From the NCBI GenBank assembly GCA_046483495.1, contig JAWODC010000040.1:32001-96000 (forward strand): a stretch of DNA of 64,000 nucleotides, in the 5' to 3' direction. Shown piece by piece: positions 38,812 to 52,527 of the stretch. The notes beneath the pieces were generated by a model that was not told the origin of the DNA, did not search any database, and was given only the letters and a program-made list of their open reading frames with translations. A program made the translations under genes and the position numbers. Position 1 is the stretch's first letter. Each line of letters starts with the position of its first letter. The stretch comes from Desulfobacterales bacterium (GTDB taxonomy: Bacteria; Desulfobacterota; Desulfobacteria; Desulfobacterales; UBA5616).

Positions 38812-39666
38812 TTATCGAATCAAAAAGACCGGGTTGGCGATCTCATCCACCAGACCGCAGAGCCGTTCTCCTGCGAACCAGTCTTCAAGACAGGGGATAA
38901 TTACGGGACCGGCGGTTTCATAACGAATGTGGGCGGCCAATACGGTCAAGGAAGGGCGGACGAGCGGCCTCAGCCGGACCTTGATGTCGGGCGCCTGCAA
39001 CTGTTCGGCGGCCTGGTGCCGATACCGTTCAACTTCCTCGCTGCTGTTCCCGATGATGAATACAAGTAATGGCGTTTCGTGGGATTTGGCAAGGTATACA
39101 GCCGTATCCAGCGTCTTTACGGCGGTTTGGGTTCCATCATAGACAGCGGCAACCGGTGATTTAGAAAATGCCACACGCGTTTGCATCACCAGCGTCATCC
39201 CGATGCGCTGCATCAAGAGCGCCCGAACAGTGGACCCCGAGCGGTGAATGCCCGGCAATGACCTGCCGATTTTCCCGAGAACGACCAAATCCGCGGTCGC
39301 CCCTGCATTGAGAACCTCGGTACCCACCGCGCCCCGGACGGTTTTAAATTCCCACGGCACCCCGAGCCGTTCGGCGGTTTGAGCCAGCCTGTTCCGAATT
39401 CGTGCCGCCTGGACGCGCAGTTGAAGTTCCATATCATGTGTATTGATTCGGCGCGTCCGGTCCGAATAAAAGCTGACTTCCCTGGCAAACGGCAATTGGG
39501 CCAGACGCAGCAGGTTGATGTCCTCTACAAACAGCCCCAGCACCTCGGACTTGAAACGAGCAGCCAGTTCCAAAGCGGTTTGCATGGCATTCATGCTCGA
39601 TGTGGAAGCGTCCAGTGCCACCATGATTCGTTGAATGGGTGAATGGCGCGGTTTTTCTTCACTCAT
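38812..39666 (-). CDS. universal stress protein (tandem USP)
   Basis: RIMVALDAS, GLFVED, ADLVVLG, GSTVR, NPVFLIR. Confidence 0.85.
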   Translation of the reverse strand: MSEEKPRHSPIQRIMVALDASTSSMNAMQTALELAARFKSEVLGLFVEDINLLRLAQLPFAREVSFYSDRTRRINTHDMELQLRVQAARIRNRLAQTAERLGVPWEFKTVRGAVGTEVLNAGATADLVVLGKIGRSLPGIHRSGSTVRALLMQRIGMTLVMQTRVAFSKSPVAAVYDGTQTAVKTLDTAVYLAKSHETPLLVFIIGNSSEEVERYRHQAAEQLQAPDIKVRLRPLVRPSLTVLAAHIRYETAGPVIIPCLEDWFAGERLCGLVDEIANPVFLIR

Positions 39667-39708
39667 GCGTGTGCCGCCTTTTTTGAAAGTTGGTTGATCT
39701 CATCATGA

Positions 39709-42180
39709 TCATTTTCCCGAAACCGTCTCGAGATCCTTTTCTTCCGAGGCCTGCCGGGCAAAACGAATGCGTTTGTCGGCAAATTCCTTTAGCCGCCGAT
39801 GCACCAATTCGTTAAACGTGTCTTTTGGATACGAGCCGGCTTCATCCGGTTCGCCGGCCGTCATGCCGGTCAGAATTTCAATGCCCTGATCGATGGTCTT
39901 CACGGCATAAATATGAAAATCACCGGCTTCAACGGCATGGATGACATCCTGGCGAAGCATCAGGTGCTGCATATTGGAAGCCGGAATGAGAACGCCCTGT
40001 TCTCCGGTAAGGCCTTTGGCCCGGCAAACATCATAAAACCCCTCGATCTTTTCATTTGCGCCGCCGATCGGCTGAACCTGCCCGTACTGGTTGACGGAAC
40101 CGGTAATTGCCAGGGACTGGCGGATGGGGACATCGGCAATGGCCGAGAGCAGTGCATACAGTTCGGCGGAAGAAGCGCTGTCTCCTTCGACGCCGCCGTA
40201 GGATTGTTCGAACACAAGGCTTGCGGAAAGGGACATGGGGATATTCAAGGCATACCGGCCGCCGAGAAAACCGGATAAAATCAATACACCCTTCGAATGA
40301 ATCGGACCCCCCATGGCGACTTCCCGCTCGATATCCATGACTTCTCCTTTGCCGAGGCGAATGCGCGCCGTAATTCGGTTGGGGCGGCCGAAAGCGAATT
40401 CTCCCAGGGAAATTACGGAAAGCCCGTTCACTTGTCCGACGCGGGATCCTTCGGTGTCGATAAATACGATATCCCGCTCGATTTGCTCCTGCATCCGTTC
40501 GCGCAATCTGTCCGATCGGTAAATCCAGGCATCCACCGCTTTCTGCACATGCTCTGCTTCAACGGCTGACCGTCCGTTCTGTCGGGCCCAGTAATCGGCT
40601 TCACGCAGCAGGTTGCTGATGCTCACGATGTGAAGCGTGATTTTTTCGGCGTCTCCTGCCAACCTGCTGCCGCGCTCGATAACCCGGCTGACGGCGTCCC
40701 GTTTGAACGGCAATAAATTTTCATGCCGCACGATTCCTGCCAGTAATCGAACGAATTCATGCTCGTTCTGCCGGTTTCGGTCCATCTGCTGAGCAAAATC
40801 AACCGGCACCTTGAACAGGTCGCTGAAATCAGGATCATAATGGCGAATCATGTAGTAAAGAAGCGGTATGCCGGTGAGCACGACCTTTATCGTGATCGGC
40901 AATGCTTCCGGTTCGAGCGATACCGTGCTGATCAAGCTGTACATCTGTCCGATGGATTCGATTTTCAGGTTTCCCGACTGCAGTGTGCGTTTCAATCCTT
41001 CCCAGGCAAACGGCTCACGGACAACTTTAAGGGCATCCAAAATCAGGTATCCGCCGTTGGCTTTATGAAGAGCACCGGGGCGGATCATGTTGAAATCCGT
41101 TATCAGAGCACCCATTTGGGCTAAATGTTCGACCCGCCCGAAAAGATTCTGGTACGTCGGATTCTCCTCATAGACCACCGGCGCTCCTTTGCTTTTGCTG
41201 TGATCCACGAGTACATTGATGTGATAACGGCGTTCAGCCGGATTTTCAGTCCCCCCCTCCGTTCCCGGTGAACCCTGGAACATCTGCTGAAGCTGCTGCT
41301 GCTGCCCCTGCTGCAATTGAGGGAAAAGATCCCGCACATTTTCGATCAGGTCATTCCGAACCGATTCGAGATAGCTCCGGACGGCCTCGTGATCGGCATA
41401 TTTTTTCTGAAGTTCATTGACCAGCGGATTTATGGTATATTGCGTCACTTCCCGGTTGAATGCTTTTTGTTTTTCCCGAACTTCGCGCTGCCACTGAGGG
41501 ATGTTCTGCGCCACACGCTGCGCCTCTTTTTGCATTTCCTCGGCATTTTCCTCGAGGCTTCGTTTTTCCTCGTCTGACAGCTGCTCGTATTCCTCCTTGG
41601 AAATGCCTTCTTCCGTTCCCGGTTTTGCCGGTATGAAGGCAAGACCGCTGGGAGTGGGCACGGCTACCAGATTTCTCTCCCTGGCTTTTCTGCGCAGGTC
41701 CTCGAAAATCTGGCGCTGTTTTTCCTGCAGTTCCTGAACAATGGATTGGGCGCGGTTCTGGTATTCTTCATTCTCGAGGGCAGCCTGCATGGCATTCTTG
41801 ACATCTTCCACCAAGCGTTTCATATCCTCGGCCAGGGCTTTACCCTGTCCGGCCGCCAGCGTGAGCAGCCGCGGTGCATGCCGCTTTTCGAAATTCATGA
41901 CATAACAGATGTCCTGCGGAACCGGTTCATGCAGGGCACGGCGCTCCAGGAAATCACGAATAAATGCGTGCTTTCCCGTACCCTGCTCGCCCAGGGCGAA
42001 AATGTTGTAGCCTTCCTGCTGAATACCGATGCCGAAATGCAGGGCCTGTTCGGCGCGAGGTTGGCCGATGACGGATGTGGCAGGTGAGATATGGTCGAAA
42101 TCATCCGTAGTCGTAAACGGCAAATCATCAAGCCGGCATTCTTGGTACAACTGGTTCGATTTTAATTCCGTTTCGTGCAT
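39709..42180 (-). CDS. Lon-like protease (LonC/AAA_32 + S16 protease domain)
   Basis: GEQGTGK, GALHKANGGYL, GQVNGL, EGDSAS (Ser), GGANEK (Lys). Confidence 0.92.
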   Translation of the reverse strand: MHETELKSNQLYQECRLDDLPFTTTDDFDHISPATSVIGQPRAEQALHFGIGIQQEGYNIFALGEQGTGKHAFIRDFLERRALHEPVPQDICYVMNFEKRHAPRLLTLAAGQGKALAEDMKRLVEDVKNAMQAALENEEYQNRAQSIVQELQEKQRQIFEDLRRKARERNLVAVPTPSGLAFIPAKPGTEEGISKEEYEQLSDEEKRSLEENAEEMQKEAQRVAQNIPQWQREVREKQKAFNREVTQYTINPLVNELQKKYADHEAVRSYLESVRNDLIENVRDLFPQLQQGQQQQLQQMFQGSPGTEGGTENPAERRYHINVLVDHSKSKGAPVVYEENPTYQNLFGRVEHLAQMGALITDFNMIRPGALHKANGGYLILDALKVVREPFAWEGLKRTLQSGNLKIESIGQMYSLISTVSLEPEALPITIKVVLTGIPLLYYMIRHYDPDFSDLFKVPVDFAQQMDRNRQNEHEFVRLLAGIVRHENLLPFKRDAVSRVIERGSRLAGDAEKITLHIVSISNLLREADYWARQNGRSAVEAEHVQKAVDAWIYRSDRLRERMQEQIERDIVFIDTEGSRVGQVNGLSVISLGEFAFGRPNRITARIRLGKGEVMDIEREVAMGGPIHSKGVLILSGFLGGRYALNIPMSLSASLVFEQSYGGVEGDSASSAELYALLSAIADVPIRQSLAITGSVNQYGQVQPIGGANEKIEGFYDVCRAKGLTGEQGVLIPASNMQHLMLRQDVIHAVEAGDFHIYAVKTIDQGIEILTGMTAGEPDEAGSYPKDTFNELVHRRLKEFADKRIRFARQASEEKDLETVSGK

Positions 42181-42450
42181 GGTGTTATCCCTTTTTGTTG
42201 TTGGCGGTTAATGGATTCAAACGTAATATACTGTACGATTACCTGCCATGGGCATGTCTGTGTATTTGCCGGATCGATACTGTGTATGACCCACGCGGTT
42301 TCACCCGTCTTAGAATGGGTTTCAAAACCTCTCCTCAGGTCTGATATCGGCATTGGGAGGAAGGATTAAATGCTCAACGTTATGTATCCTGCGCTTGAAT
42401 CCTTCCCCCCTTGATTTTGGATCTGATTGAAGATTTTGAAACCGTTTCTA

Positions 42451-43131
42451 CTATTCATTCTTTTTGATAAACGGTATACGGATTTCACCAAACCGTTCTC
42501 CTTCCGCCTGCACCAATTCCATTTGAAATACGTACTGCGGGGCATCTCCGATTTTCTGAAAGTAGAGAAACCCGGATGCTTCGGCGCCGTCTTTTAAAAC
42601 ACCTTCCGGGATGGCGTTGTCCAGCATTTCCCGCGTGGGCAGGCTGATTTCACGCCAGCACGTGTAGTAATGATCGAAGTAAAAGGGATCATAGTAAAAA
42701 GGGTACCGATACAAGTGCATGTAAGGATAGAACCGATGGTAATGAGGTGCGACATAAAATCCCGGGCAGGCAAACCGGGATCGCATGGCAGGCTCGTAGA
42801 TTGTGCCTTCAACGGAATAGGGCGGAAGTGCTGAATACAGCTCACCGGTACCGCTCGTCAAGGAGAATAAATTGTAGCTTATTTTGAGTGGGGCGCCGGA
42901 GCGGTTGGTAATATTGACCCTGAACGGGGTAACATGCTCCCTTACCTGTTCTTTGCCTTCCCATGCTCTGCCCGAAGCTGCGACATGCACCCCTTTTACC
43001 TGTTGACCCGCGGTTGCATCCTCGATCTGCAGAGAAGGATCGGGAACGAGAACCGGCATTCGGGCGCATCCGACGATCATCAAGCATACGAATACGGCAC
43101 ATACTTTTATTTGGCTTATTTGGCTGTTCAT
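42451..43131 (-). CDS. hypothetical lipoprotein
   Basis: Lipobox IVGC, Tyr/Pro-rich segment, GFLYFQ. Confidence 0.75.
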   Translation of the reverse strand: MNSQISQIKVCAVFVCLMIVGCARMPVLVPDPSLQIEDATAGQQVKGVHVAASGRAWEGKEQVREHVTPFRVNITNRSGAPLKISYNLFSLTSGTGELYSALPPYSVEGTIYEPAMRSRFACPGFYVAPHYHRFYPYMHLYRYPFYYDPFYFDHYYTCWREISLPTREMLDNAIPEGVLKDGAEASGFLYFQKIGDAPQYVFQMELVQAEGERFGEIRIPFIKKNE

Positions 43132-43348
43132 CTTGTTCTTCCCTCAGTCTAAATACTCCGTTCCTACCCTTGTTGCGGGGCCTCTCCGTTACGGATCAGG
43201 CTTTTTTCGTTTATGATTATGTCTGATTTATGCACCGGATAAAGGATAGCCCCCATACCATGGGTCACGCAATCAGCATATTATTCATCCCAGGGTCGAC
43301 GGGCGGCTTCCCCGTCGGCTTTCTGCATGGTTTTACGGAGGAAACGAT

Positions 43349-43561
43349 ATGACGGAACATGAAAAAACGACCGATTGCCCCGAGTGCCGTGGAACGGGTT
43401 TGATCCAGGCGGTAAACTGCAGCAAATGCAATGGGAGCGGTAAAATTCTGATTCATTCGCATCCTCACCGACATGGTGAAAATGTGCATGACCATCCGCA
43501 TTCTCATTCGTCCGGACACAACATGAACGATGAAGTGCCGCACGACCACCGGCACGAGTGA
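43349..43561 (+). CDS. small His-rich protein with DnaJ-type CxxCxGxG zinc finger
   Basis: SD ggagg; CPECRGTG, CSKCNGSG, HxH repeats. Confidence 0.75.
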   Translation: MTEHEKTTDCPECRGTGLIQAVNCSKCNGSGKILIHSHPHRHGENVHDHPHSHSSGHNMNDEVPHDHRHE

Positions 43562-43626
43562 CGAGAACAGAACATGCGGAAGAAGCGAAATCGCTACACC
43601 GGGTTTTTCGAATGGGGCGTTTGCGG

Positions 43627-44205
43627 TCACGGCAACTCCACCTCTTCGGGTGTTTTCGGTCCGGCGGGCGTTGAATAGATGCCCCAACCCGATGCTCCGC
43701 CGCGTGGATGCTCTTCGGGAGGGGAGTAGGACGGCTTTGCCGCCAACGCCTCTTTGCCGCCGGGTAGGACCACTATTCGATCCGATTCCCAAGGGAGTTT
43801 CTCTTCGGTTCCCTCCGGCGTCCGGATCGTTCGATACGTCCACTGCGTTTCGAACTCAAGGCTGCCGATATCCAGTGCGATCATTTTTTCACCGATATCC
43901 AGGAATCCCCCCGTCGCAACGACGATGTGATGGATTTTACCCTGAGCCGTAAAAAGAATGTCCTCGATCTCCGCGATTTGTTCCCCCTGCGGGTTATTGA
44001 CGGCACTGCCTAAAAGATCGGAGGCACTGAGAATGGTCGGTTGATCCGCGGCATTCGAAGGCTTTTCTTTTGCTGTTTTCTCTGCGTCGGCGTTTTGTGC
44101 CGACAAAGGGGCGGAAAACGCAGCCAAAAAAAGTCCGATGCATAAAAATACAAGGAGGATAGTGTACTTACCGTTTTTGCAGGCTTTTTTCTGATGAAGT
44201 TTCAT
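43627..44205 (-). CDS. PRC-barrel domain exported protein
   Basis: Signal peptide, ASDLLGSAVNNPQGEQIAEIEDI, GGFLDIGEK. Confidence 0.85.
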   Translation of the reverse strand: MKLHQKKACKNGKYTILLVFLCIGLFLAAFSAPLSAQNADAEKTAKEKPSNAADQPTILSASDLLGSAVNNPQGEQIAEIEDILFTAQGKIHHIVVATGGFLDIGEKMIALDIGSLEFETQWTYRTIRTPEGTEEKLPWESDRIVVLPGGKEALAAKPSYSPPEEHPRGGASGWGIYSTPAGPKTPEEVELP

Positions 44206-44242
44206 AGTCAATCTCCAGTGGGTGGTTGTGCAGTAATTCATG

Positions 44243-45367
44243 TCACCGTGACTTGCTCATCAGGGCATGCCGCATGACATTGAGCTTGTTGGCCGCTCCG
44301 GCAAGACGATAGGCACTGACGAAATAGTGCAAAAATGTAGCCAATGATCCGCTCACCTTTTTGCCCAGAAATGTGCCGCAGGAATTCCAATTCGCCATCG
44401 GTATAAAGAAACCGTAATCCACCGGCTTAAATGCAGCAAGTCCTTGACCTCGCATACTCCTGAGTATGTTTTCGGCGGCATGGCTCCCTTGCCTTACGGC
44501 CATTTGCGCAGCCATTCGCGGGCAGTTGCCCTGAGAAGGGTAACAGCCGGTATTGCCGACGGCATAGGCGTTTTCGGAGAATCGAAGAAAGGCATCCGTG
44601 GATATTCGCCCCTGGGATTCTTTGGGCGTGTCGAGCCGGTCGACGATCCCGGGCGCCTTCATGCCGGCGCTCCAGATGAGGAGTGCATTTTTAAACGTGT
44701 TTCCATCGGAAAGTGTCACCTCCCTGTTTTCTATGCCGTTTACCCGTGTTTCCAGGAGAATGTCGATGTTCCAGTTTGCCAGGTTGTTGCGTGTATAGGC
44801 CTTCATCCAGTCAGGCACCGGGCCGAGGATGGAATCAGCCATTTCAACAATGGTTACGGATTTGTTTTGATGATGCACCTGGAGATGCTTTCGGATGTGG
44901 GTTGCAACTTCCACGCCGGTATATCCGCCGCCGCAAACTACGAATGTGTCATAGCCGCCCCGGCTTACGGCATATGCGATCCTGTCGCCGTCATATACAT
45001 CATCGAGTTTCAAGGCTTTTTCCTTTAATGGATCGTTTCCGTAGAAATTGGTTTCCGAGCCGGTTGCCATGATCAGATAATCGTAAGGAATCGTTTCCTT
45101 TTTCGCCGTTACAAGCCCCTGCTCGAGTTCGATTCGGGACACTTCATCGAGAACGAACCGGAAACCGTAAGCATGACGATACGCTTCTATCGGGTACACC
45201 ATATGTCGGATGGGAATCGACCGGCTGATGATATCGGGCAACAGCGGCTTGAAATGCATGGTTTCGAATCGGTTGATCAAGGTGACATCCACAGCGGGCA
45301 GATGGGAAAGTCCTTTTGCGGCCGCCAGCCCGCCGAAACCGCCTCCGACAATCACAACCCGTTTCAT
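44243..45367 (-). CDS. NDH-2-like FAD-dependent pyridine nucleotide oxidoreductase
   Basis: VVIVGGGFGG, YDYLIMATG, GGGYTGVE, AQMAVRQG. Confidence 0.9.
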   Translation of the reverse strand: MKRVVIVGGGFGGLAAAKGLSHLPAVDVTLINRFETMHFKPLLPDIISRSIPIRHMVYPIEAYRHAYGFRFVLDEVSRIELEQGLVTAKKETIPYDYLIMATGSETNFYGNDPLKEKALKLDDVYDGDRIAYAVSRGGYDTFVVCGGGYTGVEVATHIRKHLQVHHQNKSVTIVEMADSILGPVPDWMKAYTRNNLANWNIDILLETRVNGIENREVTLSDGNTFKNALLIWSAGMKAPGIVDRLDTPKESQGRISTDAFLRFSENAYAVGNTGCYPSQGNCPRMAAQMAVRQGSHAAENILRSMRGQGLAAFKPVDYGFFIPMANWNSCGTFLGKKVSGSLATFLHYFVSAYRLAGAANKLNVMRHALMSKSR

Positions 45368-45649
45368 ACCGCCTCCAGTTCCAAAGATAGATTCATAAAG
45401 ACTTTCAGACTGTCAGAATTTTTCCAGAATTTTTTGGATAAGGCTATACGGTAAATCCCCCAGCCGAATTTCCGGACCCGGGTATTTTTTTAAGCATTTC
45501 GATGTATCTGAAGCTGCATCGGATTACCGTTTCATAATGCGTCAAATGGAGCATTCCCCGTATGGCAGCCGTTGCGGTATTCAAGATAGGGATATAAAAG
45601 CGGCGAAAGACGAAAAGTTCGAAACATAACCGAGGAGCGACAGAGAAAA

Positions 45650-46915
45650 ATGGCGGAACTGATCCTGTACAACCAGTTGGTCAAGGGAATGCATGCTTTC
45701 ACCCCCCGCGAAAAGGGGCGCGTCAAGCTCTTTACCTGCGGACCCAGCGTATACCGGCGCCAGCATCTGGGAAATTACCGTACATACCTGTTTGAAGACG
45801 TTTTGCATAAATACTTGGAATACAAAGGCCTCGAGGTCAATCGGGTGATCAACTTCACCGACATCGAGGATAAAGCCATTCGAGAGGCCCGAGAGAAAGG
45901 CACCAGTGTCGAAAACCTCAGGCGACCCGTAGAAGAGGCTTTTTTCAACGAATGCGCTATGCTGAAGATTCGCCTGCCGGAAAATATTCCGCGCGCCTCC
46001 ACAAGTGTGCATTCCGCCGTGGACCTTATTGAAAGCCTGATCGACAGGGGCCATGCCTATTGGCATAAAGGGGAGGCTTTTTATGATCCCTTGACCTTTC
46101 CGGGCTTTGGAAGGATTTATGGCCTGGACATGAGCCGCTGGCCTGAAAAGAAGATCCGTTTCCGGCAGGACACGTATCCCGGCCAACGGTGGAACTTGGG
46201 TGATTTCATTCTCTGGCACAAACAAAAAAATGTCGAAGCGGAACCCTTCTGGGATACCGAAATCGGCCGCGGCCGTCCGGCCTGGAATATCCAGGATGCG
46301 GCGATGATCCGGAAGCAGCTCGGATTCGAGATCGATATCCACACCGGCGGCATCGACAATCTTTTTCGGCATCATGACTACACCATGTCCATCATGGAGG
46401 GTGCATCCGGAAAACGGTTCTGCCCTTGGTGGCTGCATGGCGGTCACCTGCTCGTAAACGGCCGAAAAATGTCAAAATCAACTGGGAATGTCGTCTACCC
46501 TGAACACTGCATGGATCAGGGATTTGCACCCCGGCATATCCGGTTTTTCCTTCTGTACGGTCCCTATCGGGACAAGCTGGATATGCGCGATTCCGTTATG
46601 CATGAACGGGCCGGATATCTGGATCGCGTGCGGCGCCTGGTTCACAGACTATGCACCGGCGTTGCCGAACGCGCCGGGAAATGCGATGCACATCCGGCCG
46701 CGGATGTAAAAGCCGCCTTCGAGTCGGGCATGGACAACAATCTCGATGTTGCCGGAGCTTTCGATGCAATGACGGATCAGCTGATCCGGGCGGTGCATAT
46801 CGATGCGTCGACAGGCATCGACTCCCGGAAGCGAGAGGCGCTTCGCACTGCACTATCGGATGTGGATAAGGTGTTTTGCGTACTCAACATCGACTCGTCA
46901 GACGGGATGAAATAA
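45650..46915 (+). CDS. cysteinyl-tRNA synthetase-like protein (divergent paralog, lacks the anticodon-binding domain)
   Basis: TCGPSVY, HLGN, NFTDIEDK, DFILW, GRPAWNIQD, DIHTGGID, KMSKS, DALR-like region. Confidence 0.88.
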   Translation: MAELILYNQLVKGMHAFTPREKGRVKLFTCGPSVYRRQHLGNYRTYLFEDVLHKYLEYKGLEVNRVINFTDIEDKAIREAREKGTSVENLRRPVEEAFFNECAMLKIRLPENIPRASTSVHSAVDLIESLIDRGHAYWHKGEAFYDPLTFPGFGRIYGLDMSRWPEKKIRFRQDTYPGQRWNLGDFILWHKQKNVEAEPFWDTEIGRGRPAWNIQDAAMIRKQLGFEIDIHTGGIDNLFRHHDYTMSIMEGASGKRFCPWWLHGGHLLVNGRKMSKSTGNVVYPEHCMDQGFAPRHIRFFLLYGPYRDKLDMRDSVMHERAGYLDRVRRLVHRLCTGVAERAGKCDAHPAADVKAAFESGMDNNLDVAGAFDAMTDQLIRAVHIDASTGIDSRKREALRTALSDVDKVFCVLNIDSSDGMK

Positions 46916-46986
46916 AATCGGCGGCCGTTGGTAATGACCCCGTACAGGAATTCGAAACAGATCGGTGCAGCAGGCTTAAAAACAGC

Positions 46987-47895
46987 ATGAATATTATCGA
47001 GGTGCGGAATACCGTGAAGCGCTTCGGCGGCTTTGCCGCCGTTGACGGCATTAGTTTTCATGTGAAAAGCGGCGAGTTCTTCGGCGTCCTCGGCCCGAAC
47101 GGAGCGGGCAAAACATCGGCCATTCGAATGATCTATGGCTTCTCGCCCGTGACCAGCGGAGAAATGCGCGTTTTCGGCCTCGACATCAGGACCGATTGGC
47201 GGACGATTCGTTCGCGTCTGGGGGTATGCCAGCAGGAAAACACGCTGGACCCGGACTTGACGGTTGAACAGAATCTTTTGCTGTATGCACGATATTTTGA
47301 AATGAAACGGTCACGGGCCCGGATGCGCTCTGCGGAACTGCTTCAGTTTTTTGCGCTTACCCATAAACGCAACGCAAAAGTCATGGAACTGTCGGGCGGA
47401 CTGGCACGACGGCTTCAACTCGCACGGGCGATGATGCCGGAGCCCGAACTGCTGATTTTAGACGAGCCGACAACGGGGCTCGATCCGCAGTCCAGGCACC
47501 AGGTGTGGGATAGGCTTTTCGGACTCAAAAAGCAGGGACTGACCATGCTGCTGACGACCCACTACATGGATGAAGCCGAAAGTCTTTGTGACCGGCTTCT
47601 GATCATGGATCACGGAAAGATCATTGCCGAGGGCCGGCCGCAGGAGCTGATCACCGATCACGCGGGCGAGAGTGTCATCGAGATTCATGGTCCGAGTAAA
47701 GAGCTCAAAGCCTTTATTCGTGACCGCAGCGTGATTCATGATGATCTGGGTGAACGAATGATTATCTACACAGAGGCCCAAGGCGAATTGGAGCATGAGA
47801 TCCGCCGAACGTACTGCATGGAATCATGTATCTTTCGCGCGGGGAATCTTGAGGACGTCTTTCTCCGTTTAACCGGAAGGGAGCTGCGCGAATGA
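46987..47895 (+). CDS. ABC exporter ATP-binding protein (NodI-like)
   Basis: GPNGAGKT, LSGG, LILDEPTTGLDPQ, TTHYMDEAE. Confidence 0.93.
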   Translation: MNIIEVRNTVKRFGGFAAVDGISFHVKSGEFFGVLGPNGAGKTSAIRMIYGFSPVTSGEMRVFGLDIRTDWRTIRSRLGVCQQENTLDPDLTVEQNLLLYARYFEMKRSRARMRSAELLQFFALTHKRNAKVMELSGGLARRLQLARAMMPEPELLILDEPTTGLDPQSRHQVWDRLFGLKKQGLTMLLTTHYMDEAESLCDRLLIMDHGKIIAEGRPQELITDHAGESVIEIHGPSKELKAFIRDRSVIHDDLGERMIIYTEAQGELEHEIRRTYCMESCIFRAGNLEDVFLRLTGRELRE

Positions 47896-48683
47896 ACCGG
47901 GTCGATTTTGCCGCCATATCGCTTCGCTTTCGGCATGTCTGGTTCAGGAACCTGATTACTTACCGCCGCATCTGGCGGGTCAACTTCCTGGTGCCGCTGC
48001 TGGAGCCCGGGTTTTACATTCTGGCCTTCGGGCTGGGGTTTTCCGGGCTGATCGGCAATGTATCCTATGCCGGTCTTCGATTGGAGTATACGCAATTCAT
48101 GGCCCCTGCTCTGGTGGCCACGGCCTGCATGTGGAACTCCTTTTTCGAGACGTCCTACACGTCTTTTGTACGCATGTACTACCAAAAGACATTCGACGGC
48201 ATTTTAGCCACCCCCATGAGTTTGGAAGAGATCATCATAGCGGAAATTGTATGGGCCGCATCAAAAGCGGCGGCCGCGGTGACCGTGATGCTGGCCGTAC
48301 TCGTCCCCATAGGGTATGCAATGTTTCCATGGGCGCTTATGTGCATTCCGCTGGCCTTTTTGGGCGGGTTGGCCTTTGGGGCCATCGGCATGTATTTTAC
48401 CGGAATCATTCCAACCATTGATATGTTCAATCTGCCGATCTTCTTATTCATTACACCGATGTTTCTGTTTTCGGGCACGTTTTTCCCTGTCTCGGGCATC
48501 CCGGATTGGGCCGGGATCTTTTCACTGGTGTTCCCATTGTACCACCTTGTGGAATTGACGCGCTTTTTCTGTATCGGGGCGATGGAGTCCAATCCCTTCT
48601 TCAATGTATTTTACCTGTTCATCTTTACCCTGTTATTCGGATTTCTGGCCCTTATTTCCATGAAACGGCGATTGATTCAGTAG
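47892..48683 (+). CDS. ABC-2 exporter permease (NodJ-like)
   Basis: LLEP, YQKTFDGILATP, PMFLFSGTFFP, PLYH; ATGA overlap with the ATPase. Confidence 0.92.
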   Translation: MNRVDFAAISLRFRHVWFRNLITYRRIWRVNFLVPLLEPGFYILAFGLGFSGLIGNVSYAGLRLEYTQFMAPALVATACMWNSFFETSYTSFVRMYYQKTFDGILATPMSLEEIIIAEIVWAASKAAAAVTVMLAVLVPIGYAMFPWALMCIPLAFLGGLAFGAIGMYFTGIIPTIDMFNLPIFLFITPMFLFSGTFFPVSGIPDWAGIFSLVFPLYHLVELTRFFCIGAMESNPFFNVFYLFIFTLLFGFLALISMKRRLIQ

Positions 48684-48840
48684 GAGGAGGCGTTCGGGAC
48701 AGAAAGCGTTTCAGGCGGAAAACCGGCACATCCGCTATTCCGGAGGGGTATGCGTTATCGGATTAAGGTTGATTTTTCTGCACCGGTGTGGAAGTAATTT
48801 CAATGTGATTAAACCGAATCCATTCGACAGGCCTTCACAA

Positions 48841-50301
48841 ATGACCGCCCGGCTGCCGGCGAAATTGACTGTAGTGTTGGTGTACGGCCGGCCCGTTCTG
48901 GTTTTCGGAGGAATGATATGCGCCCTCGCCGTCATGTGGGGCCGAAATGCCTCCGTGTATCTTTTCGGCGTTTCTTTTTTGCTGGTGTCCATGACCTTTG
49001 ACCTCATCGACGGCTGGTTTGCCGCCCGTTTCAGACCGCAGGCGCCGTTGGCGCCTTTAGCGGACCGGATCATGGACAAGCTCGTTTATTCGATTACTTT
49101 TCCGGTGGTTGCAGTGGGAATGATGTGGCGGCTTATTGATGCCCAGCCGTCCCGCATGCAATTGATGCACGCCCTTTTTGTCCTGATCGTGTGCGTTACG
49201 GTCCTCATCCGTGACAACTTCGCCGCTTTCATGCGAAGCTTCGGGCTTCGTCAGGGAAATGAACCGGAATCCATTGAATTTACACGTCTTCGAACAGTAG
49301 TGGCGGCGCCGGTCGGGGTGGTCCTCTACATGTATGCATTCTATGTACCGGGGGGTCCGCCCAACCCGATTTACCGCTTATTATCCCGAATAGCCGACCT
49401 GCCGTTGAGCAGCCTTTTTTTCATCGAGATCTTGTTTTTGATCATCAATTTCGGTTCCATAGCCGTTTACTGCCGCAAATACGGTGATGTGTGTCTCGAT
49501 GAACTGTGTTTCGGAGACCAGCTTCTCAGACGCAGAATTCTGTCGGTGCTGCCGAATGCACTGACGGTGATGAATGCCATCATGGGGTTGATCGGTGTTT
49601 TTTTTGCCTATCAAGGCCGATTTCGGGAAATGTACTTGATGGTGATCGGCGCGGCCACATTCGACAAACTTGACGGGGCCTTGGCGCGCCGGCTGGGGCT
49701 GACGCATCCGCTTCCGAATGCTCCCGAGAAAAAAAGGGTGAATCTCGGCAACCTGATGGATGATTTTGCCGATGCCGTCAGCTTTTGCATTGCACCGGCC
49801 TGGATTTTTTATATTGCCATGACCGACTTCGGCCATGAACGTACGATTGACGTGCCTGTCGAATGGGTCGCCGGTTTATATGCACTTGCAGGCATTGCCC
49901 GGCTGGTCTACTTTACCGTGGACAAAAACCCCATTCCCGGTTTTTTCAAGGGCATGCCCACCCCAGCGGCAGCACTGCTGGTGCTTTCGCCCATCGTAAT
50001 TTACGGCCAGGCTTTAATCAGCCATCCGGAAAGGGCCGAATTCTGGGGAGCGTTTTCCGCGTGGCTGATGCTGTTTTCCGTAATCCTCATGAACGTGTAT
50101 CCGGTTCGTTATATCCATGTGGGTCGGGCCATGAGCCGGAATCCATGGCTCACCCGTTTTATCGCCGTTGTCTTGATTTTCTCTGCGTTTACGCCGTTTC
50201 TGGGCCATGTCGGTCTGGCCTTTATGGCCGTGTATCTCCTGTCGCCGCCGGTCACGTGGAAAATTCATCCCGAAGACGCCGCCCGGGAAGTCCGCAGCTA
50301 G
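48841..50301 (+). CDS. tandem double CDP-alcohol phosphatidyltransferase
   Basis: DLIDGWFAAR...ADRIMDK and DKLDGALARR...GNLMDDFAD; FFKGMPTPAA; start uncertain. Confidence 0.85.
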   Translation: MTARLPAKLTVVLVYGRPVLVFGGMICALAVMWGRNASVYLFGVSFLLVSMTFDLIDGWFAARFRPQAPLAPLADRIMDKLVYSITFPVVAVGMMWRLIDAQPSRMQLMHALFVLIVCVTVLIRDNFAAFMRSFGLRQGNEPESIEFTRLRTVVAAPVGVVLYMYAFYVPGGPPNPIYRLLSRIADLPLSSLFFIEILFLIINFGSIAVYCRKYGDVCLDELCFGDQLLRRRILSVLPNALTVMNAIMGLIGVFFAYQGRFREMYLMVIGAATFDKLDGALARRLGLTHPLPNAPEKKRVNLGNLMDDFADAVSFCIAPAWIFYIAMTDFGHERTIDVPVEWVAGLYALAGIARLVYFTVDKNPIPGFFKGMPTPAAALLVLSPIVIYGQALISHPERAEFWGAFSAWLMLFSVILMNVYPVRYIHVGRAMSRNPWLTRFIAVVLIFSAFTPFLGHVGLAFMAVYLLSPPVTWKIHPEDAAREVRS

Positions 50302-50481
50302 TGTTTAAATCCTGATCACGAAAATACCGCCTCAGGCCTCTCATCTACCCTGTTTTGTATCCTCAAATGAATAGTTCAGCCCATGGATCGAATATGGAAG
50401 CTGAATCTATGATTGATGACAACACGATCCGCCGGGGCGGTGGATCGGCCCTTGATTTTTTTATTCGACAAGGAAGGAATA

Positions 50482-52527
50482 ATGAAAGACTTTCAAAGAG
50501 ATTTCGAAACACTGCGCAATAAAATGATTGAATATCACCTGAAGGCGAGGGGTGTGGACGATCCGGCCGTGTTAAACGCCATGAAGGAAGTTCCACGGGA
50601 AAAATTCGTTCCCGATCACCTGAGCGAATTTGCCTATGAGGATTCGCCCCTGCCCATCGGCGAAGGCCAGACGATTTCCCAGCCGTACATTGTCGCTGCC
50701 ATGACCCTGTATTTAGAGGTGGCCGAAAATGACCGGGTGCTGGAAATCGGTACGGGTTCCGGCTATGCCGCCGCCGTTTTGAGCCGTCTTGTAAAGCAGG
50801 TATTTACAATAGAGCGTCATGAGAGCCTTATAACGGCGGCAAAAGAGCGTTTTTCAGAATTGGGATTTGACAATGTCGAGGTGATCTATGGCGACGGGAC
50901 ACTCGGGCTGCCGGAAAAGGCACCGTTCGATGCCATTTTGGTGACGGCGGGCGCTCCCCATATTCCCGAGCCCCTCAAGCAGCAGCTTGCCGTAGGGGGA
51001 AGAATGGTGATTCCCGTCGGCGGAAGTTCACGCGCCCAGGAACTGATGCGTGTTCGGCGAAATTCGGAAGATGATTTCAGCCGGGAAGAGCTGGCTTCGG
51101 TGCGGTTCGTGCCGCTTGTCGGTCAGGCGGGATGGCAGGCGCCTGAATCTGTCGATCCGCCTGATCCTCAACCATCCGGTCGGCAAGGCCCTGTATTCTC
51201 CGATGCACGCGATTCCGGGGTGCGGTCCAAACCCTATTCAGAAATTATCGGCCGACATGCCGATATCGTATCGTCCATAGGAGAGACCGATCTGACGCCC
51301 CTGCTCGATCGGATCGGGGATTCCCGTATCGTTCTTCTGGGTGAAGCCACTCACGGATCGGCTGAATTCTACGATATGCGCGCCCGCATTACCCGTGAAT
51401 TGATTCAGCACAAACATTTCACACTGGTGGCCATCGAGGCGGATTGGCCGGATACTGCTCAAATCGACCGCTACATCAGCGGCAAGGTCGCCGAAACGCC
51501 GGTGGAAAAACCGTTCACCCGATTTCCAACATGGATGTGGGCCAATGTGCAGTTCGCCGACTTCGTGGAGTGGCTGCATCGGTACAACGAAGAAAACGGA
51601 TTCGGCCGGCAGGCCGTGAATCTTTACGGACTCGATCTTTACAGCATGTATACATCCATCGGCGAGGTTCTTCGGTTTTTGGATGCCAAAGATCCTCACA
51701 CCGCCGCGATAGCCCGGCAGCGCTACGGCTGCTTGACACCCTGGCAGAACGACCCGGCTGCTTACGGCGCCGCGGCTTTATCGGGAAATTTTGAAGCCTG
51801 TGAAGAAGAGGTCGTCAGTATGCTGCAGGAGATGCTGGAAAAAAGATCCCGATACGGTCCGGGGGATTACCACGGGTTCCTCGATGCCGTTCAGAACGCA
51901 CGGCTGATTGCCAATGCCGAGCGGTATTACCGTGCCATGTATTATGGCTCCCGGGATTCATGGAATCTCCGCGACCGGCACATGTTCGACACCCTGAGAC
52001 TGGTGCTGAACTTTCACGGCGAGAGGGCGAAGGCGGTGGTATGGGAACACAATTCACACATCGGCAATGCCGCGGCGACCGAAATGGGGGCGGGCGGAGA
52101 ATACAATGTGGGATCATTCTGCCGGGAAGAATACGGAAAAGAGGCCTATCTGGTCGGTTTTGGAACGGATCACGGCACAGTGGCGGCGGCATCGGAATGG
52201 GACCGGCCCATGGAGGTCAAGAACGTCCGTCCGGCCCGGGAGGACAGTTATGAACACGTATGCCATGAAAGCGGCATCAGCGCCTTTATCCTGCCGCTCA
52301 ATGGCCCGGACCGCAGGGATGTCCGCCGTGCGTTTATCGAGGAGAGGCTCGAAAGGGCCATCGGCGTCGTCTATTCACCCGAAACAGAGCTGCAAAGCCA
52401 CTATTTTCATGCCGTGCTGCCGAACCAGTTCGATGAGTTCGTCTGGTTCGACGAAACGCATGCCGTCACTCCATTGAGTGATGTTCGCGGGCGCGAGTTT
52501 CCGGCGACGTTCCCGTTCGGCGTTTGA
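50482..52527 (+). CDS. pcm: protein-L-isoaspartate O-methyltransferase fused to an erythromycin-esterase-like domain
   Basis: GQTISQP, LEIGTGSGY, APFDAI, VRFVPL; LLGEATHG, EADWP, WNLRD, HNSH. Confidence 0.92.
   Translation: MKDFQRDFETLRNKMIEYHLKARGVDDPAVLNAMKEVPREKFVPDHLSEFAYEDSPLPIGEGQTISQPYIVAAMTLYLEVAENDRVLEIGTGSGYAAAVLSRLVKQVFTIERHESLITAAKERFSELGFDNVEVIYGDGTLGLPEKAPFDAILVTAGAPHIPEPLKQQLAVGGRMVIPVGGSSRAQELMRVRRNSEDDFSREELASVRFVPLVGQAGWQAPESVDPPDPQPSGRQGPVFSDARDSGVRSKPYSEIIGRHADIVSSIGETDLTPLLDRIGDSRIVLLGEATHGSAEFYDMRARITRELIQHKHFTLVAIEADWPDTAQIDRYISGKVAETPVEKPFTRFPTWMWANVQFADFVEWLHRYNEENGFGRQAVNLYGLDLYSMYTSIGEVLRFLDAKDPHTAAIARQRYGCLTPWQNDPAAYGAAALSGNFEACEEEVVSMLQEMLEKRSRYGPGDYHGFLDAVQNARLIANAERYYRAMYYGSRDSWNLRDRHMFDTLRLVLNFHGERAKAVVWEHNSHIGNAAATEMGAGGEYNVGSFCREEYGKEAYLVGFGTDHGTVAAASEWDRPMEVKNVRPAREDSYEHVCHESGISAFILPLNGPDRRDVRRAFIEERLERAIGVVYSPETELQSHYFHAVLPNQFDEFVWFDETHAVTPLSDVRGREFPATFPFGV

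Follow-up and report, generated by a model that had tools for sequence, protein, structure and literature searches.

The window (the whole stretch of 64,000 nucleotides analysed here, from a Desulfobacterales genome) carries on its forward strand, at 45650..46915, an open reading frame (P0001) for a 421-residue paralogue of cysteinyl-tRNA synthetase (CysRS), identified from the ORF listing, Pfam, TIGRFAM, and alignment with E. coli CysRS. The frame begins with ATG, and the sequence 12 nt 5' of this codon reads as a Shine-Dalgarno-like GAGGAG (45632..45637, +). Its GC and GC3 contents resemble those of the adjacent genes, and promoter and terminator counts around it are at the level of shuffled sequence. 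A NodI/NodJ-like ABC-2 exporter pair (46987..48683, +) starts 71 nt downstream and is probably co-transcribed with the paralogue here; this partner is not conserved. Downstream of nodJ, positions 48769-50301 encode a 510-residue protein that contains a pair of CDP-alcohol phosphatidyltransferase domains, of which the second is PssA-like. All of these genes lie within an accessory stress-gene region (38812..52527, no strand assigned) containing Usp, a Lon-like protease, a PRC-barrel protein, an NDH-2-like oxidoreductase, a CDP-alcohol transferase, and a PCMT-erythromycin-esterase fusion. A genome of the same genus has only a 130-bp DNA match to the surrounding 19.5 kb, and the paralogue is absent there too.

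The N-terminal motif segment (45737..45775, +) contains C30, the equivalent of the metal ligand Cys28 (E. coli numbering is used for canonical residues), G31-P32-S33, in which Thr31 has become Ser, the basic pair R36-R37, and HIGH in the form H39-L-G-N42; an HxGN form is frequent in full-length CysRS. Together with an intact KMSKS (K273-M-S-K-S277; 46466..46480, +), this completes the class I pair of motifs. Between them lie R65...T70-D71-I-E73-D74-K75 (45842..45874, +), which retains the equivalents of Thr68 and Lys73, has lost that of Lys76, and includes the family-specific R65 and E73; a rebuilt CP loop, residues 153-190 (46106..46219, +; D-M-x-x-W-P ... R-F-x-x-D-T-Y-x-G-x-R-W-N-x-G-D-F-x-L-W-H), a predicted acceptor-binding lid; and two pocket segments defined by alignment. 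The first, GRPAWNIQDAAM (46271..46306, +; G208-RPAWNIQDAAM), retains Trp205 and has the changes His206Asn, Glu208Gln, and Cys209Asp, and the second, GGIDNLFRHHDYT (46346..46384, +; ending F239-RHHDYT), retains Gly227/Asp229, His234, and His235 and has the changes Pro233Arg, Glu236Asp, Asn237Tyr, and Glu238Thr. In the alignment with E. coli CysRS (1LI5), C30, D216, H241, and T245 correspond to Cys28, Cys209, His234, and Glu238, which are the zinc ligands of canonical CysRS according to the accessible part of PMC7563103; the paralogue has Cys, Asp, His, and Thr at these positions rather than the canonical four-ligand set.

Over its last ~100 residues the protein can still be aligned with the DALR-like helical bundle of CysRS (46580..46885, +), and it ends 9 residues later, without a CysS_C anticodon domain. 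Pfam gives a PF01406 match at E 1.7e-72, and neither CysS_C (PF23493) nor DALR_2 at E<=0.01; both are present in the canonical CysRS of this genome. An ESM Atlas model (pTM 0.89) has a TM score of 0.92 to CysRS models over residues 2-421. The TIGR00435 (cysS) score of 288.8 is under the 340 cut-off, and the score with the MshC model TIGR03447 is 160.3 versus a cut-off of 485.1. The ORF, the alignment, and Pfam thus bear out the motifs (HLGN, KMSKS, FRHHDYT), the two ligand changes, and the missing anticodon domain given in a preliminary description of this gene, which had been drawn from the sequence alone.

These features are those of a family. Its best 120 homologues are 50-73% identical to the paralogue and mostly 400-440 residues long, and Q215, D216, D236, N237, R240, H241, H242, D243, and Y244 are invariant in all of them. 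Across 89 aligned members the ATP motifs, C30, T70, W212, H241, H242, and H263 are invariant or nearly so, and in 113 of 118 complete loci the frame stops 0-16 residues past the helical bundle, without an anticodon domain. (In one member, L037 at G034:C35:55378-56628, the search reported a single TAG inside the matched stretch, query 3-418, which is possibly the true stop near the end.) Comparison with six close relatives gives dN of 0.24-0.30 and dS of 1.8-2.8 or saturated, indicative of purifying selection. Because of the invariant pocket residues, the uniform 3' ends, and this selection, the paralogue is an intact gene, neither an assembly error nor a decaying gene. One salt-lake metatranscriptome contains an identical 234-nt contig that lies inside the gene, although carry-over of DNA could also account for it.

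Members turn up sporadically, in 3 of 60 relatives and in 11 of 400 genomes of the phylum, and their hosts are anaerobes; named carriers include Desulfobacteraceae, Desulfohalobiaceae, Nitrospiraceae, spirochaetes, Zixibacteria, Bathyarchaeia, Freyarchaeota, Hadarchaeota, and Methanoperedens. No member was found on viral contigs, and no plasmid matched the family at >60% identity. (The plasmid collection does contain 625 records, 502 of them Klebsiella, with a CysRS-like match at ~30% identity, many unannotated.) Among family matches, a fusion longer than 737 residues occurred as a single match only, of the CysK-CysRS type, which is weak evidence. No description of the family appeared in the literature searched, whose scope ended short of subscription papers and of supplements such as the CysRS* alignment of PMC5389517; the accessible part of PMC9437257 lists CysRS* and MshC as CysRS paralogues. 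The family is a real, conserved, and apparently uncharacterised variant of CysRS that spans bacteria and archaea.

Three CysRS-like genes occur in the genome, whose completeness is 96.7%: a canonical cysS of 481 residues, which adjoins an ispF-like gene on contig C7, a CysK-CysRS fusion, and the short paralogue. ARAGORN finds one tRNA-Cys and one tRNA-Sec. The fusion (763 residues; C21:1082-3373, -) has intact Cys/Cys/His/Glu ligands and degenerate HIGH (GLGE) and KMSKS (KIGEN) motifs, and it is possibly a non-adenylating partner of cysteine synthase that binds cysteine or tRNA; frames of 760-800 residues resembling it occur in most of the 60 relatives. The preliminary description had taken the short gene to be a paralogue and had called for a canonical cysS elsewhere in the genome, and the gene on C7 establishes that this is so. 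The same holds among carriers generally, since 32 of 35 have a second, higher-scoring CysRS, and four carriers also have SepRS. Of the remaining three, one has a CysRS fragment at a contig edge, and in two MAGs of 1.7-1.9 Mb neither a second CysRS nor SepRS was found; in these two the short protein may serve as the sole CysRS. One MAG had suggested such a role for Bathyarchaeia as a whole, an idea that the 32 carriers with another CysRS led us to reject.

It had also been proposed that the two ligand changes signify a different substrate, which the comparison with natural enzymes does not bear out. Asp is found at the Cys209 position in four of 123 long-tailed proteins in a profile search, and a search with one of these, P0254, returned 120 full-length CysRS, all 120 with both Asp209 and Glu238. 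Named relatives of P0254 are Patescibacteria and Woesearchaeota, and the two that were scanned both bear CysS_C. These Asp209-type proteins (P0254, P0276-P0394) have HIED and PHHEAE/PHHECE motifs and so a natural Cys/Asp/His/Glu site. (P0131, of 858 residues, consists of an Asp209-type half followed by a Cys209-type half, either a misassembly or possibly a tandem fusion.) MshC, which reads FPHHEYS and so has no Glu238 and has Tyr at Asn237, nonetheless ligates cysteine according to the accessible part of PMC5370406, and 9YRU has Asp at Glu236. Because C209D is present in all of those full-length CysRS and MshC uses cysteine without Glu238, the two changes are compatible with cysteine and by themselves are no sign of altered specificity.

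In E. coli CysRS, Cys-to-Asp mutants are reported to lose most translation activity (accessible parts of PMC5660078 and PMC10655014). The same excerpts describe C28D and C28/209D (PMC5660078), and C209D in the review (PMC10655014), as retaining the synthesis of cysteine persulfide, a PLP-dependent moonlighting activity reported for CysRS. The paralogue could on this basis be a dedicated persulfide synthase, and three of the four relevant lysines (the equivalents of Lys73, Lys266, and Lys269) are present. However, Lys is never among the commonest residues at the Lys76 position, each single Lys mutant is reported in the accessible text to cut activity, and both the kept lysines and the full ATP site, which persulfide synthesis does not need, are explained by adenylation; such a dedicated synthase is thus very unlikely.

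A position-by-position comparison was made of 46 family, 45 Cys-type, and 30 Asp-type proteins, in which conserved positions were those with at least 85% identity in 75 full-length CysRS. At such positions the family has undergone the concerted changes T31S, D71E, Y152F, K185H, G204A/S, H206N, E208Q, P233R, E236D, E238T/N, and Q241I/V, and N237Y also belongs to this pocket set. New invariant residues are R65, W164, P165, T175, G178, W181, and Y244. His206, Glu208, Pro233, and Glu238 are invariant in all tRNA-charging CysRS sampled, and all four are altered in the family. We take the roles of Thr68 (alpha-amino binding), Trp205, Gly227, and Asp229 in CysRS to carry over to the paralogue. No segment of the family is better conserved than the CP loop (153-190; 0.78 versus 0.57 overall; in canonical CysRS, 0.42 versus 0.40). 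The net charge of this loop is +4.3 versus -0.4 in canonical CysRS, and the charge at positions 36-37 is +1.7 versus -0.2. (It should be noted that the CP loops of the Asp-type proteins, at +2.7, and of the sister set described below, at +3.0, are basic as well, but those proteins are basic throughout, whereas the family is near neutral overall.) In CysRS, the tRNA's first base pair is read by a loop (MSGA; accessible part of PMC5389517), and this segment is replaced in the family by the basic CP loop. Since a conserved basic loop stands in place of the pair-reading segment, the acceptor would be anionic, whether RNA or a small molecule. The helical bundle gives no sign of the relaxed selection that would accompany loss of tRNA binding (relative conservation 0.56 in the family versus 0.55 in canonical CysRS and 0.68 in the Asp209 set). 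As judged from the aligned sequences, the true signature of the family is the concerted pocket set together with the new, basic, conserved CP loop, and not C209D/E238T alone.

In the more careful of two trees, with 39 rows covering the catalytic part (midpoint root, built without MshC, CysRS*, the long-branched P0244, and P0180), the family is monophyletic with support of 100/99, and its sister at 99/99 is a set of four CysRS-like proteins (P0135, P0141, P0145, P0174) that have no anticodon domain and keep Cys209; a quick tree of 80 rows places the family in the same way. Three of the sister proteins are named, from Micrarchaeia, Micrarchaeota, and Iainarchaeum, and P0135 has no close match in the phylum sampled. 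P0174 already has N213, Q215, and Thr at Glu238, and has lost the Lys73 equivalent; it may be drifting. With a midpoint root and with MshC and CysRS* absent from the tree, the order suggested is that the anticodon domain was lost first and that the pocket and acceptor loop were rebuilt later. Anticodon-less CysRS-like proteins also include P0167 and P0182, and the pockets of all six are mostly intact. Because P0167 and P0182 branch apart, this suggests that the anticodon domain has been lost repeatedly.

The gene neighbourhoods bear on the proposal, made in the preliminary description, that the NodIJ-like transporter exports a small product of the enzyme. The common strand and 71-nt gap seen here are repeated in a similar layout in the nearest clade; NodIJ lies directly downstream in five of 94 loci with at least 1 kb of 3' sequence, all in that clade and two of them the same locus, and orthologues lie 2-3 kb away on the opposite strand in two further loci. 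The other 89 loci do not have the arrangement, and no tailoring genes lie nearby. Among the 60 relatives, nodJ and the paralogue are not associated: a nodJ orthologue is present in four, three of which have no paralogue while the sole carrier has nodJ on another contig, and two of the three paralogue carriers have no nodJ orthologue. As a function of the whole family, export through NodIJ is largely refuted by these counts, and we regard it as a highly improbable explanation of the gene. More generally, Pfam scans of 71 and 114 selected neighbours revealed no partner gene common across the 118 loci.

The neighbours lean weakly to oxygen-stress and hibernation genes. Ten randomly drawn loci of the phylum (one partial locus excluded; 49 neighbours) were compared with 20 random windows of this genome (115 ORFs). 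SOD, rubrerythrin, rubredoxin reductase, OsmC, HPF, or baeRF lay within three genes in 6 of the 10 loci versus 4 of the 20 windows (one-sided p 0.039), a value that becomes 0.071 once two related loci are merged, with a gene list drawn up post hoc and a control of one genome. MsrAB is also near some loci, and ribosome-related neighbours (HPF, baeRF, an RF-1 domain) recur. In 20 Bathyarchaeia-type loci the gene immediately upstream encodes a peroxiredoxin, and in two Methanoperedens loci the gene immediately downstream does. These associations, together with the invariant new Arg beside the metal His and the harder Cys/Asp/His ligand set, would suit an enzyme whose substrate for activation is cysteine in oxidised or S-modified form (sulfinate, sulfonate, S-sulfo, or persulfide), as the free amino acid or within a protein such as peroxiredoxin, with repair or disposal as the outcome; Arg240 might then act as the counter-ion, and Cys30 possibly as a nucleophile. 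The peroxiredoxin link, however, is confined to two lineages and is absent here, the pocket proposal derives from sequence, and the conservation of T70, in the role presumed for it, points to a free alpha-amino acid rather than to a protein residue. Activation of oxidised cysteine is accordingly judged unlikely.

In 128 loci there is no tRNA-Cys or tRNA-Sec, the only tRNAs being four unrelated ones, and Rfam gives no match to either in the window. One selB and one tRNA-Sec score above cut-off in this genome, both on contigs other than that of the paralogue, and a CysRS*/selenocysteine system was rejected on these grounds. DUF488-N3i, a domain presumably linked to nucleic acids, is fused to the N terminus of one member (L165:5607-7220, G382:C12), and in L076 a stand-alone DUF488-N3i gene comes immediately after the member. 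Over the 128 loci there are one fusion, one adjacent, and three nearby cases, and the domain is present in 13 of 43 carriers (10 of them Bathyarchaeia-type) versus 1 of 29 non-carriers. It is absent from this genome and so was discarded as an obligate partner.

Taken together, these observations are best accommodated, at a probability of about 0.4, by an accessory CysRS-derived enzyme that couples a common, anionic acceptor other than tRNA with cysteine or a derivative of it, and that works as a stand-alone stress ligase. Cysteine or its derivative would be adenylated with ATP at a predicted Cys30/Asp216/His241 metal site and then passed to an acceptor gripped by the basic CP loop, with a phosphorylated amine, CoA, a nucleotide-like molecule, or a protein side chain as candidates. 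The ligase would act within oxygen-stress or dormancy physiology, MshC-like without being MshC. Since the gene travels through bacteria and archaea unaccompanied, the two substrates would have to be ordinary cell components. Adenylation is suggested by HxGN, KMSKS, and the equivalents of Gly227/Asp229 and Lys73, and an alpha-amino-acid substrate by the invariant Thr68 equivalent; metal binding, the charge of the acceptor, and the role in stress are likewise predictions. This ligase reading is favoured by the kept ATP motifs, by the 113 of 118 frames with no anticodon domain, and by the other CysRS in 32 of 35 carriers. The anticodon and U73 are the main identity elements for CysRS according to the accessible text of PMC5389517. 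Further points in favour are the replaced tRNA-pair-reading loop, the absence of tRNA-Cys and tRNA-Sec genes from the loci, the lean to stress genes with peroxiredoxin in two archaeal lineages, and the parallel with MshC (FPHHEYS) in Asn237Tyr, loss of Glu238, and a length of ~414 residues. Against it, no acceptor or pathway gene co-occurs (PIG-L deacetylase is in 22 of 42 carriers versus 13 of 29 non-carriers), where R240, Y244, and the CP loop would sit around the pocket is a prediction from sequence, the stress enrichment is weak, and the basic loop, the stand-alone gene, and a bundle as conserved as the canonical one fit a tRNA acceptor equally.

The main rival, then, is tRNA charging that is blind to the anticodon, in which the acceptor stem would be held by R36/R37 and the basic CP loop and loaded with cysteine or another small amino acid in a relaxed or stress-time manner. 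The preliminary description had raised a non-tRNA acceptor as one option, but this is not established; an engineered anticodon-less CysRS variant charged the selC* tRNA (accessible part of PMC5389517). The anticodon-less sister proteins have a mostly intact Cys/Cys/His/Glu pocket, Cys209Asp is natural in full-length CysRS, tRNA is universal and so suits a gene that travels alone, and the charge of the loop, the ribosome-related neighbours, and the one DUF488-N3i fusion all agree with a tRNA substrate. What weighs the other way is the canonical CysRS of nearly all carriers, the missing partner tRNA, the single selB and tRNA-Sec of this genome, the translation defect of the E. coli Cys-to-Asp mutants, and the alteration of His206, Glu208, Pro233, and Glu238 together. 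Such charging is a serious alternative, but a rather doubtful one.

The enzyme might instead stand in for MshC or BshC and use a glucosamine glycoside to build a thiol of the mycothiol or bacillithiol type. No gene of this genome scores above cut-off for MshC or BshC, and there are sub-cut-off matches to MshA, MshB/Mca, BshB, and mycothiol transferase: an MshA-like glycosyltransferase is near a BshB-like deacetylase at C11:60768-63879, and an MshB/Mca-like gene adjoins a mycothiol-transferase-like gene at C46:103581-104987. They form a mycothiol-like system that lacks a recognised cysteine ligase. Three family relatives, however, lack the paralogue yet have these MshA-like and MshB-like genes, and an MshA-like gene is missing from 37 of 43 carriers (6 of 43 carriers versus 6 of 29 non-carriers have one; for MshB-like genes, 2 of 43 versus 3 of 29). 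Mycothiol-type genes thus do not co-occur with the paralogue, and the mycothiol/bacillithiol role, for which there is very little probability, was set aside. Separately, an EgtD above cut-off on C77 (L194:6015-9199) adjoins a molybdopterin oxidoreductase and a desulfoferrodoxin, a cluster that resembles the metallopterin route to ergothioneine (PMC9516567).

A more specific form of the preferred reading, tentative and with the odds against it, is that the family may be a third CysRS-derived class, next to MshC and CysRS*, in which one gene shared by anaerobic bacteria and archaea encodes an oxygen-stress enzyme that would adenylate cysteine or oxidised cysteine and join it to a universal phosphate-bearing metabolite or to protein. 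If so, it would represent an undescribed redox thiol or cysteine-repair route, and a stepwise series for a synthetase leaving translation. Synthetase paralogues have repeatedly revealed new chemistry, as with MshC and CysRS*. The present family is conserved in archaea as well as in bacteria, its rebuilt active site is sharply defined, and it requires no partner gene. The controls caution that Cys209Asp and loss of Glu238 alone do not signal a change of specificity, and the sister group without anticodon domains supplies intermediate forms in which the loss of CysRS specificity and of tRNA dependence can be studied.

Canonical CysRS (TIGR00435, PF01406; PDB 1LI5/1U0B, 8QHP) shares with the family the Rossmann fold, CP domain, and helical bundle at 29-35% identity, as well as HxGN, KMSKS, Cys28, Thr68, Trp205, His234, His235, and His256. 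The family differs in having no CysS_C, a new CP loop, and the changes T31S, K185H, H206N, E208Q, C209D, P233R, E236D, N237Y, E238T/N, and Q241I/V, and in none of the genomes checked is its member the main CysRS. MshC (cysteine:GlcN-Ins ligase; TIGR03447; PDB 3C8Z, 8HFM), which the preliminary description names as a tRNA-independent CysRS paralogue, resembles the family in size (~414 residues), in the absence of the anticodon domain and Glu238, and in its motif (HHEY/S, versus HHDY/T here), where Asn237 is replaced by Tyr and Glu238 by a small hydroxyl residue. MshC, however, keeps Cys209, His206, Glu208, and Pro233, which the family does not, and has a Cys/Cys/His metal site where the family has Asp216; the family also occurs outside Actinomycetota and does not co-occur with MshA/MshB-like genes. 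The likeness is assumed to be convergence, MshC having been absent from the trees. CysRS* of Desulfobacterales, as described in the accessible part of PMC5389517, is likewise a second cysS of a Desulfobacterota host that has an altered CP1 loop and no anticodon domain, but it lies downstream of selB* and selC*, in genomes with a second selB, whereas here the single selB and single tRNA-Sec are both away from the gene. The Asp209-type full-length CysRS of Patescibacteria and Woesearchaeota have the same Cys/Asp/His metal site but keep Glu238, His206, Pro233, and the anticodon domain, and form a separate branch. The nearest relatives (99/99) are the anticodon-less CysRS-like proteins of Micrarchaeia and Iainarchaeum (P0135, P0141, P0145, P0174), known from annotation only; they keep Cys209 and are without P233R, N237Y, and the new CP loop, but three of them share T31S and D71E with the family, and P0174 shares H206N, E208Q, and E238T.
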